From NCBI RefSeq assembly GCF_003334315.1, contig NZ_QOWR01000016.1: a stretch of DNA of 64,000 nt; one strand, written 5' to 3'. Of the stretch, positions 34,691 through 52,069 are shown one piece after another. A model generated the notes under the pieces. It ran no database searches, was not told the DNA's origin, and was given only the letters and a program-made list of their open reading frames with translations. The number at the start of each line of letters is the position of its first letter. Positions within the stretch are counted from its first letter, which is position 1. Position numbers and translations under genes: made by a program. The stretch comes from Escherichia coli. GTDB taxonomy: Bacteria > Pseudomonadota > Gammaproteobacteria > Enterobacterales > Enterobacteriaceae.

Positions 34691-34789
<99 letters not shown>

Positions 34790-47035: not shown

Positions 47036-47157
47036 CTTTCCCTTAGAGTCCTTTTTCAAATATACTGTGAAGACTTCGGCCTTCGTAGTGGGATTTGAAA
47101 AAATCCTTCTGGAAAGTGCTCCAGACCGCAGTTGCGGTTATAGGGTTCAGTTATATA

Positions 47158-47183
47158 AAGCCCCGATTTATCGGGGTTTTTTG
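47158..47183 (+). terminator. intrinsic terminator downstream of metY (before rimP-nusA-infB)
   Basis: agccccga ttta tcgggg stem followed by ttttttg. Confidence 0.65.
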
Positions 47184-47241
47184 TTATCTGACTACAGAAT
47201 AACTGGGCTTTAGGCCCTTTTTTTATGTCTTGGGGGTGGGC

Positions 47242-47721: not shown

Positions 47722-49209
<1,488 letters not shown>

Positions 49210-49233
49210 TAAACTGTAGCAGGAAGGAACAGC

Positions 49234-51906
49234 ATGACAGATGTAACGATTAAAACGCTGGCCGCAGAGCGACAGACCTCCGTGGAACGCCTGGTACAGC
49301 AATTTGCTGATGCAGGTATCCGGAAGTCTGCTGACGACTCTGTGTCTGCACAAGAGAAACAGACTTTGATTGACCACCTGAATCAGAAAAATTCAGGCCC
49401 GGACAAATTGACGCTGCAACGTAAAACACGCAGCACCCTTAACATTCCTGGTACCGGTGGAAAAAGCAAATCGGTACAAATCGAAGTCCGCAAGAAACGC
49501 ACCTTTGTGAAACGCGATCCGCAAGAGGCTGAACGCCTTGCAGCGGAAGAGCAAGCGCAGCGTGAAGCGGAAGAGCAAGCCCGTCGTGAGGCAGAAGAAT
49601 CGGCTAAACGCGAGGCGCAACAAAAAGCTGAACGTGAGGCCGCAGAACAAGCTAAGCGTGAAGCTGCTGAACAAGCGAAACGTGAAGCTGCGGAAAAAGA
49701 CAAAGTGAGCAATCAACAAGACGATATGACTAAAAACGCCCAGGCTGAAAAAGCCCGCCGTGAGCAGGAAGCTGCAGAGCTCAAGCGTAAAGCTGAAGAA
49801 GAAGCGCGTCGTAAACTCGAAGAAGAAGCACGTCGCGTTGCTGAAGAAGCACGTCGTATGGCGGAAGAAAACAAATGGACTGATAACGCGGAACCGACTG
49901 AAGATTCCAGCGATTATCACGTCACTACTTCTCAACATGCTCGCCAGGCAGAAGACGAAAGCGATCGTGAAGTCGAAGGCGGCCGTGGCCGTGGTCGTAA
50001 CGCGAAAGCAGCGCGTCCGAAGAAAGGCAACAAACACGCTGAATCAAAAGCTGATCGTGAAGAAGCACGCGCAGCAGTACGTGGCGGTAAAGGCGGAAAA
50101 CGTAAAGGTTCTTCGCTGCAGCAAGGCTTCCAGAAGCCTGCTCAGGCCGTTAACCGTGACGTTGTGATCGGCGAAACTATCACCGTTGGCGAACTGGCGA
50201 ACAAGATGGCGGTTAAAGGCTCTCAGGTCATCAAAGCGATGATGAAACTGGGCGCAATGGCAACCATCAACCAGGTTATCGATCAGGAAACCGCACAGCT
50301 GGTTGCTGAAGAGATGGGCCATAAAGTTATCCTGCGTCGTGAAAACGAGCTGGAAGAGGCGGTAATGAGCGACCGTGACACGGGTGCTGCGGCTGAACCG
50401 CGCGCGCCGGTTGTGACCATCATGGGTCACGTTGACCACGGTAAAACCTCTCTGCTGGACTACATTCGTTCAACGAAAGTGGCCTCTGGCGAAGCGGGCG
50501 GCATTACCCAGCACATTGGTGCATACCACGTTGAAACTGAAAACGGCATGATCACCTTCCTGGACACCCCGGGGCACGCCGCGTTTACTTCAATGCGTGC
50601 TCGTGGTGCGCAGGCAACGGACATCGTAGTCCTGGTTGTTGCTGCCGACGACGGTGTGATGCCGCAGACCATCGAAGCAATCCAGCACGCGAAAGCGGCG
50701 CAGGTACCGGTGGTGGTTGCAGTGAACAAGATCGATAAACCAGAAGCTGATCCGGATCGCGTTAAGAACGAACTCTCCCAGTACGGCATCCTGCCGGAAG
50801 AGTGGGGCGGTGAAAGCCAGTTCGTACACGTATCTGCGAAAGCGGGTACCGGTATCGATGAACTGCTGGACGCTATCCTGCTGCAGGCGGAAGTTCTGGA
50901 GCTGAAAGCGGTACGTAAAGGTATGGCGAGCGGTGCGGTTATCGAATCCTTCCTCGATAAAGGTCGTGGTCCGGTTGCTACCGTTCTGGTACGTGAAGGT
51001 ACTCTGCACAAGGGCGATATCGTTCTGTGTGGCTTCGAATACGGTCGTGTTCGTGCGATGCGTAACGAACTGGGTCAGGAAGTGCTGGAAGCGGGTCCGT
51101 CCATTCCGGTGGAAATCCTCGGCCTGTCCGGCGTACCGGCTGCGGGTGATGAAGTTACCGTTGTACGTGACGAGAAGAAAGCGCGTGAAGTTGCACTCTA
51201 TCGTCAGGGTAAATTCCGCGAAGTTAAACTGGCGCGTCAGCAGAAATCTAAACTCGAGAACATGTTCGCCAACATGACCGAAGGCGAAGTTCACGAAGTG
51301 AATATCGTCCTGAAGGCAGACGTACAGGGTTCTGTCGAAGCGATCTCCGACTCCTTGCTGAAACTGTCTACTGACGAAGTTAAAGTGAAGATCATCGGTT
51401 CTGGCGTAGGTGGTATCACCGAAACCGACGCCACCCTGGCTGCGGCGTCCAACGCCATCCTGGTTGGCTTTAACGTACGTGCTGATGCCTCTGCACGTAA
51501 AGTGATTGAAGCGGAAAGCCTGGATCTGCGTTACTACTCCGTCATCTATAACCTGATTGACGAAGTGAAAGCGGCGATGAGCGGTATGCTGTCTCCGGAA
51601 CTGAAACAGCAGATTATCGGTCTGGCGGAAGTTCGTGACGTGTTCAAATCGCCGAAATTTGGTGCCATCGCAGGCTGTATGGTTACCGAAGGTGTGGTTA
51701 AACGTCACAACCCGATCCGCGTTCTGCGTGACAACGTGGTTATCTACGAAGGCGAGCTGGAGTCCCTGCGCCGCTTCAAAGATGACGTTAACGAAGTCCG
51801 TAACGGTATGGAATGTGGTATCGGCGTTAAGAACTACAACGACGTCCGCACTGGCGATGTGATCGAAGTATTCGAAATCATCGAGATCCAACGTACCATT
51901 GCTTAA
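49234..51906 (+). CDS. infB: translation initiation factor IF-2
   Basis: 890-aa ORF; G-domain motifs [18 protein letters not shown]; AGGAAGGA SD; in-frame internal starts GTG 49705 and ATG 49726. Confidence 0.97.
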
Positions 51907-51923
51907 GGTTTTTAGGGTTCCAT

Positions 51924-51993
51924 GCGGGATAAGGCGTTTACGCTGCATCCGGCATGGATTGCCTGATGTGACGCTGGCGCGTCTTATCAGGTC
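51924..51993. repeat. REP/BIME pair between infB and rbfA
   Basis: gcgggataaggcgtttacgctgcatccggca (51924-51954) and gcctgatgtgacgctggcgcgtcttatcaggtc (51961-51993), REP palindromes in opposite orientation. Confidence 0.55.
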
Positions 51994-52027
51994 AACGTGA
52001 ACAGCCCTTCCACCTGAAATTAATTTT

Positions 52028-52053
52028 AAAAAGGGGCTAACAGCCCCTTTTTT
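52028..52053 (+). terminator. intrinsic terminator/attenuator between infB and rbfA
   Basis: aaaaa ggggct aaca agcccc tttttt. Confidence 0.6.
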
Positions 52054-52069
52054 GTCAGGAGAATTTATT

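Follow-up and report, generated by a model that had tools for sequence, protein, structure and literature searches.

The infB-rbfA Spacer of Escherichia coli: A Decayed REP Pair in Front of a Conserved Partial Terminator

Introduction

What do repetitive palindromes do when they come to lie between two co-transcribed genes of an essential operon? The question is raised by the spacer between infB, the gene of IF2, and rbfA in Escherichia coli, where two REP palindromes are followed by a hairpin with a run of thymines shortly before the rbfA start. E. coli K-12 carries about 600 REP copies, and at transcript 3' ends REPs are known as exonuclease-resistant structures that fix stable ends; in intercistronic positions such as this one, an influence of REPs on mRNA stability and read-through is established (REP literature). 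The original prediction for this locus regarded the REP pair and the hairpin together as an insertion, described the REPs as mobile-like and strain-variable, and suggested that they could modulate mRNA stability or read-through into rbfA-truB.

In what follows, the role of the hairpin, the known terminator t3, rests on published northern data; the anatomy of the REPs, the family matches, conservation and frequencies are results of the present analysis.

Layout of the Spacer

All positions refer to the window, i.e., the whole analyzed stretch of 64,000 nt, in which position x lies at 3365248 - x of NC_000913.3 (minus strand). Since the infB stop codon TAA occupies 51904-51906 and the rbfA ATG lies at 52070, the spacer comprises exactly positions 51907-52069, or 163 nt; this range was derived from the gene ends, and the RefSeq annotation agrees with it. 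A 464-nt query around the spacer shows 100% identity to MG1655-type genomes; the window belongs to the K-12 type. The features are as follows.

51904..51906, plus strand: infB (IF2) stop codon TAA, end of the ORF 49234..51906; annotated as infB in RefSeq K-12 records
51919..51958, minus strand: y-type REP, inverted (inverted repeat I1); consensus match at 51920-51954
51961..51996, plus strand: z2-type REP in direct orientation (inverted repeat I2); z consensus match
51997..52027, plus strand: linker from the REP pair to the terminator; holds AACAGCCC at 52000-52007, with a second copy at 52039-52046 (direct repeat D1)
52028..52053, plus strand: intrinsic terminator t3, an operon-internal attenuator (inverted repeat I3 with T6 run)
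52058..52061, plus strand: rbfA Shine-Dalgarno sequence GGAG, separated by 4 nt from the T run and by 8 nt from the ATG
52070..52471, plus strand: rbfA coding sequence, from the ORF frame and the annotation

The spacer is thus built of three inverted repeats, with arms at 51919-51937/51940-51958 (y REP), 51962-51974/51979-51991 (z2 REP) and 52028-52038/52042-52052 (t3). Its RNA folds with -71.6 kcal/mol, compared to -47.9 +/- 4.3 kcal/mol for shuffled sequences (z = -5.5). There is very little doubt that the elements of the spacer are a REP pair plus terminator t3. Two REP palindromes in opposite orientation, a GC hairpin with T6 at 52028-52053, and a location of both inside the metY-rimP-nusA-infB-rbfA-truB operon had been predicted, and all of this is confirmed by the consensus matches and pairings described below. 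The RefSeq K-12 record contains zero repeat features across 50 kb, so the missing REP annotation is uninformative.

Three long antisense ORFs were observed in this part of the window: one of 571 aa at 50590-52305 (-), facing infB, the spacer and rbfA, one of 489 aa at 47908-49377 (-), facing nusA, and one of 491 aa at 54803-56278 (-), facing pnp. All three most likely reflect strong codon bias in these highly expressed genes, since codons that are reverse complements of stop codons are rare.

The REP Pair

Read on the minus strand, the upstream palindrome agrees with the y consensus except for 2 mismatches within 30 nt, and 5 edits separate it from the 35-nt consensus. The downstream palindrome matches the z consensus on the plus strand (51961-51996) with 3 mismatches over 36 nt; it is of the z2 type, a palindrome of ~37 nt that is longer than z1 (REP literature). 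For either consensus, zero matches are expected by chance, as judged from shuffled sequence. Since the y match lies on the minus strand and the z match on the plus strand, the two REPs are oppositely oriented. In K-12 the y hairpin reaches -24.1 kcal/mol, the AA/GC internal bulge included. Its fold, ((((..((((....))))..)))), places AA opposite GC, which is the conserved REP mismatch bulge. The z2 hairpin has -19.1 kcal/mol.

The pair is extragenic, with y and z2 palindromes inverted and their heads facing across a short linker (2 nt between the hairpins, 51959-51960; 6 nt between the consensus matches), as in the REP/BIME family, and both palindromes have the internal bulge characteristic of REPs. 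This is the layout of BIME-2, yet the locus holds one unit and not a tandem array. It also differs from the family in the non-consensus, extended outer stem of the K-12 y REP (TCCATGC/GCATGGA), which starts 12 nt past the infB stop, and in the mutation of both GTAG tetranucleotides in K-12: CCAT stands where GTAG is expected at the y REP, and the z2 tail reads TCAAC (GTTGA on the other strand) where the consensus has CCTAC. The GTAG before the palindrome is essential for processing and cleavage by the REP transposase TnpA-REP. Because it is lost in both, the K-12 copies are fossils, and the expectation that they are mobile-like does not hold. In haplotypes such as GN02461, GTAG and CTAC are intact; the loss marks a decayed copy and is no argument against a REP origin.

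Elsewhere in the 64-kb window, only one further y REP was found, a perfect consensus match at 34759-34788 (-) that sits between the convergent genes dacB and obgE.

The spacer also matches the Rfam family RF02564 (naRNA4) with 68.1 bits on the sense strand, above the gathering score of 59.5; the other strand scores 27.1. We rejected this match as evidence of an sRNA gene. RF02564 was built on one y-z2 unit of REP325 and is in effect a REP-pair model, and for this reason the match shows only the sequence and structure of a REP pair.

The sense-strand score nevertheless invites the reading that the pair serves chromosome organization rather than gene expression, either as an naRNA4-like nucleoid-associated RNA or as a cruciform binding HU or, as a BIME-2, DNA gyrase. 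It could draw on the report of nucleoid condensation by HU and naRNA4 with REP-REP contacts (Qian 2015), and on BIME-2 elements as reported gyrase targets. The nucleoid role of naRNA4 is itself disputed. Harris et al. (2026 preprint) report neither measurable compaction of the nucleoid by REP325/naRNA4 nor REP-REP contacts; in their account, REP325 works locally, as terminator and stabilizer. Together with the single unit, instead of the tandem array typical of BIME-2, and with what RF02564 models, this leaves a nucleoid role of the infB-rbfA pair hardly credible.

Terminator t3

The hairpin AAAAAGGGGCT-AAC-AGCCCCTTTTTT at 52028-52053 has 11 perfect pairs over a 3-nt loop and -14.8 kcal/mol. 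Its 5' arm is AAAAAGGGGCT, its loop AAC, and its 3' arm AGCCCCTTTTT plus one T. The G+C core GGGGCT/AGCCCC (52033-52038/52042-52047) runs into T6 at 52048-52053, the last T lying 17 nt before the ATG of rbfA. A G+C-rich stem-loop followed by T6 is the form of an intrinsic terminator, here made symmetric by an A5 run upstream. A simple terminator scan was negative at 52028-52053, because extension of the stem uses up the A/T pairs and leaves no T run; this outcome was discarded as a property of the scanner and not of the sequence.

The element is identical in organism and position to the published t3 of the metY-rimP-nusA-infB operon, and nothing distinguishes the two. Brandi et al. (2019, PMC6511841), who refer to S1 mapping done before, place t3 "just upstream of rbfA". 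In the same study, an RNA of ~4.8 kb (northern band 'b') comprises rimP-nusA-infB, lacks rbfA and ends at t3, while an RNA of ~6.7 kb reads through t3 and contains rbfA. The steady-state levels follow the order nusA > infB > rimP > rbfA, with infB about twice as abundant as rbfA (Brandi et al. 2019, PMC6511841). A promoter scan of 51400-52600 found no promoter-like site. As the spacer is free of such sites, expression of rbfA-truB from the upstream promoters needs read-through of t3.

On the minus strand, the symmetric A5-stem-T6 arrangement reads as a hairpin followed by T5. On account of this symmetry, t3 could act as a bidirectional terminator, also against antisense transcription that enters from rbfA.

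Two further terminators lie in the rimP leader, t1 at 47159-47183 and t2 at 47205-47227, inside an Rfam rimP leader match at 47124-47224. The latter terminator is GGGCTTTAGGCCC followed by T7 and represents the 'GGGc...gCCC' motif of Naville and Gautheret (PMC2965389). The resemblance of the G4C/GC4 core of t3 to this motif is probably generic G+C-rich terminator composition.

Distribution across the Enterobacteriaceae

The region was located through RbfA in 80 species-level genomes of the Enterobacteriaceae; 84 spacers of 62-289 nt were compared in all. Every one of them ends alike, with a G+C-rich hairpin, a T-rich run, GTCTGGAGAA and the ATG, and GGAGA is invariant in an alignment of 81 spacer sequences. 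Terminator t3 is present in 84/84 spacers in the form of 47 distinct hairpins with 30 distinct loops and -13 to -18 kcal/mol. The first 7 pairs from the loop are intact in 100% of the 84 spacers, although at 4 of these 7 positions the type of pair varies (A-T to G-C; T-A to T-G to C-G). Such a set of 47 stem-preserving variants, with 7 intact pairs and 30 loops, identifies t3 as a structure under selection. This conservation, and a natural IS insertion described below, are what is new for t3.

The slot between the infB stop and t3 is filled quite differently. In 14 genomes of basal genera, among them Cedecea, Buttiauxella, Shimwellia, Atlantibacter and Franconibacter, spacers of 62-75 nt consist of the terminator module alone, with no REP. 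Most other genera carry one REP of a different type, the 31-nt GTAGGCCGGGTAAGCGAAGCGCCACCCGGCA. Some Citrobacter and Kluyvera georgiana have y plus z1, which is shorter than z2, and y plus z2 occurs in E. coli, E. albertii and Pseudocitrobacter. An ERIC-like element is added in several Salmonella, Citrobacter, Raoultella and others. At the orthologous site, most genera have palindromic repeats in this slot, but of different families: ERIC/IRU elements and REPs of the Klebsiella/Enterobacter type.

The ERIC-like elements are palindromic, measure ~127 nt and occur in 8 spacers of 212-289 nt from Salmonella diarizonae, Citrobacter, Raoultella, Phytobacter and Intestinirhabdus; two of them hold a further internal insert of ~70 nt. 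Other Citrobacter show shortened ERIC-like versions, TCTTCGTCGTCTTTTGGG...CCCAAAA...GAAGA.

Judged by these alignments, the infB-to-t3 slot is a hot spot for repeat insertion across genera. Hot spots of insertion are a general property of REP/BIME and ERIC elements. Because t3 is common to all spacers, including those with no REP, it is not part of any insertion. The REP pair, in turn, is the inserted and younger layer, since the slot is empty in basal genera and holds other REPs or ERIC-like elements elsewhere. Of the insertion proposed in the original prediction, the REP half therefore stands; the terminator half does not, as t3 is ancestral and found in all 80 species genomes.

The comparison also bears on a proposal made for this very locus. 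Naville and Gautheret (2010, PMC2965389, Figure 8) put the element in front of rbfA into one group with the elements of gatY and cvpA, described as 'a possible attenuator based on BIMEs' and provided with candidate anti-terminators, a proposal that rested on the clustering of predicted terminators. It shares with the original prediction the idea that the repeat modulates read-through into rbfA. In this version, the BIME would be the sensor of a true attenuator, its flank pairing with the terminator as an anti-terminator, perhaps coupled to ribosomes at the infB stop 12 nt upstream of the REP. A suitable pairing is predicted: in the nascent RNA up to the terminator loop, AGCCCUU (52003-52009) pairs with AGGGGCU (52032-52038) at -8.3 kcal/mol, and in the full fold AGCCC pairs instead with GGGUU just past the infB stop. 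As AGCCC is held by GGGUU near that stop, a ribosome at the stop codon could free it.

Several results, however, stand against such an attenuator. The terminator is far more stable than the alternative (-15.5 vs -9.4 kcal/mol), and the pair probability of t3 is 1.0 with or without the REP pair. While t3 is present in 84/84 spacers, the alternative pairing is predicted in 27/84 and its C-rich partner found in only 22/84; within Escherichia no covariation is available to back it. The sole candidate anti-terminator pairing is thus not conserved where the terminator is, and it does not extend beyond Escherichia-like spacers. We consider a true BIME-based attenuator distinctly unlikely. A more specific form, in which the extended y stem of the K-12 type and AGCCCUU (pairing either with GGGUU or with the 5' arm of t3) would constitute a translation-coupled switch, is very improbable. 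If it were true, the closing helix would be opened by each ribosome that completes IF2, the anti-terminator would become available, and more transcripts would continue into rbfA-truB. Production of a ribosome-maturation factor would in this way be coupled to the translation of the initiation factor upstream.

Variation within E. coli

Among 5426 complete E. coli genomes, a 204-nt query, a third of which is the REP pair, is covered to at least 80% in 5423, and the pair itself is present in 5424 (99.96%). A strain-variable pair had been expected; as far as presence is concerned, this is not what the genomes contain. It had further been asked whether the copies are invariant in all relatives: they nearly are within E. 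coli, but not across genera, where the slot is filled differently.

The only two genomes lacking the pair belong to related bovine O157:H7 isolates from Argentina, 9.1_Anguil (NZ_CP076235.1, retrieved segment 2494-2582) and Balcarce_14.2 (NZ_CP076243.1, 663620-663660). They share the same precise 75-nt deletion of both REPs (window 51917-51991) between two AGG triplets, which leaves an 89-nt spacer with t3 intact. The reverse situation is met in strain 22AH104 (NZ_AP043972.1, retrieved segment 3277-4600), where an IS4-family element of ~1.29 kb lies inside the t3 hairpin (window ~52035-52045) and the REP pair is intact. The element has IS10-like ends, CTGAGGGATCCCC / CTGAGGAATCCCC, and a 9-10-bp target duplication, GGCTATGGC(C). 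The transposase is encoded on the strand opposite to the operon; transcripts of rbfA-truB must accordingly pass through the IS or arise from it.

Sequence variation, as opposed to presence, is pronounced. Compared with the coding DNA on either side, the REP sequence evolves ~15x faster. Of the ~30 differences that the most divergent class shows in the 464-nt query, ~28 fall into the central 204 nt, and the IF2 and RbfA proteins are identical. At least 6 spacer haplotypes exist in E. coli. All of them keep three hairpins, with -16.5 to -27.6 kcal/mol for y, -18.3 to -26.1 for z2 and -13.5 to -15.2 for t3; the weakest y hairpin belongs to strain E69, with a damaged 3' arm and -16.5 kcal/mol. Several haplotype substitutions replace C by T and yield G-U pairs in the sense RNA; another converts a G-G mismatch of the K-12 stem into G-U. 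In this small sample, such G-U-compatible changes are suggestive of selection on RNA structure.

The derived y REP of the K-12 type, CCATGCGGGAT...ATCCGGCATGG, is found in 4656/5426 genomes. The form that E. coli shares with E. albertii and Pseudocitrobacter, GTAGGCCGGAT...ATCCGGCAGCC, is presumably ancestral, as the species comparison suggests. Relative to it, the K-12 type shows clustered complementary changes on both hairpin flanks (window 51912-51962), which destroy GTAG and lengthen the stem (-24.9 vs -21.5 kcal/mol). A search of genomes without the K-12 type for a donor copy, as gene conversion would require, gave matches to the 28-nt core only, leaving the novel flanks uncovered.

The start of the y stem matters for one further explanation. 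A REP that follows a stop codon at a distance of less than 16 nt is reported to reduce translation of the gene before it (Liang, Rudd and Deutscher 2015). By this distance rule, a y REP within 15 nt of the infB stop could stall terminating ribosomes, and mRNA cleavage and trans-translation would lower the synthesis of IF2. The locus qualifies, because the extended K-12 stem starts 12 nt after the TAA; in the ancestral haplotype, GTAG begins at +14 and the stem at +18. The distance, however, depends on how the start of the REP is defined, and the ancestral core stem lies beyond 15 nt. Moreover, IF2 is an abundant essential factor, and our literature search found no test of the mechanism on infB. 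We regard stalling at the infB stop as unlikely.

A more serious competitor is the view that the pair is a neutral fossil: a selfish palindrome that entered a tolerant slot, was fixed by drift or by hitch-hiking with the essential operon and has been decaying ever since, so that t3 alone matters. Much of the variation fits it. GTAG is lost on both REPs in K-12 and E. albertii, the pair diverges far more than the genes beside it, at least 6 haplotypes exist, among them that of E69 with its damaged 3' arm (-16.5 kcal/mol), the precise deletion is viable in the two O157:H7 isolates, and other genera have nothing or another element in the slot; the ordinary half-life of infB mRNA (see below) points the same way. 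Yet the persistence of the pair in 5424/5426 genomes, when a 3-nt direct repeat, AGG, permits its clean excision, agrees less well with neutrality. Nor does neutrality readily account for hairpin potential being kept in every haplotype, with G-U-compatible and mismatch-repairing changes, or for the derived K-12-type form (4656 genomes) having a longer and more stable stem than the ancestral one (-24.9 vs -21.5 kcal/mol). A neutral fossil is possible but, on this evidence, somewhat doubtful.

A Probable Two-Layer Explanation

On balance we favor, with moderate confidence, an explanation in two layers: an ancient partial terminator, t3, and a younger, decayed REP pair with a modest role at the RNA level. 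In the first layer, t3 would stop part of the transcripts that start at the metY and rimP promoters and would thereby set the ratio of rbfA-truB message to rimP-nusA-infB message. In the second, the lineage that led to Escherichia would have acquired a single y-z2 pair, a one-unit element of the BIME-2 type, in the slot before t3. This pair would then have gone to fixation in E. coli and lost the features of a mobile element, while every haplotype retains both of its strong RNA hairpins.

Most likely, these hairpins act at the RNA level only, and modestly. From their position between infB and t3, they would form a second barrier to 3'-to-5' exonucleases behind the t3 hairpin and so shield the infB end of transcripts, whether terminated at t3 or processed after read-through. 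They may also add pausing or attenuation before t3.

Known systems suggest the same functions. In REP325, between yjdM and yjdN and the source of naRNA4 (Qian 2015; Harris et al. 2026 preprint), REP hairpins likewise lie between co-transcribed genes, and a dual role as terminator and stabilizer between tandem genes was described (Harris et al. 2026 preprint). REP325 and the malE-malF REP stabilizer (Newbury 1987) are reported to protect the message upstream of them and to terminate part of the transcripts ahead of the next gene. REP325, however, consists of six tandem units with no separate canonical intrinsic terminator behind them, whereas the infB-rbfA spacer has one unit and a dedicated, much older terminator. 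The contribution of the REPs is therefore expected to be smaller than in REP325.

Other observations limit what may be claimed for the second layer. The half-life of infB mRNA at 37 C is 2.13 min, 'more or less typical' (Brandi et al. 2019, PMC6511841), so the REPs confer no striking stability, and two O157:H7 field isolates live without the pair. For these two reasons, any effect is probably modest. The ~15x faster evolution of the REPs would also fit weak constraint, and most Enterobacteriaceae have a different element or none in the slot. Our literature search found no experiment on the infB-rbfA REP pair and no reported effect of it on expression; a mention of infB in a paper on fluoride and REPs was set aside as incidental. 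That the pair has a measurable effect is, by analogy with the systems named above, quite possible, although not to be counted on.

Significance

Both t3 and the BIME before rbfA are already in the literature, as is the idea of a regulatory effect of the pair, which is an inference there and here; the finding is real but ordinary. It has little importance beyond housekeeping, and the function of REPs between tandem genes, though still actively studied, is an established subject. The value added by this study is comparative. Terminator t3 is universal in the Enterobacteriaceae, and the slot in front of it is a hot spot for repeat insertion, in which E. coli carries a REP pair that is fixed rather than strain-variable. 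With the natural deletion of the pair in two O157:H7 isolates and the IS-disrupted t3 of 22AH104, ready material exists for determining how either layer bears on the ratio of infB to rbfA expression.
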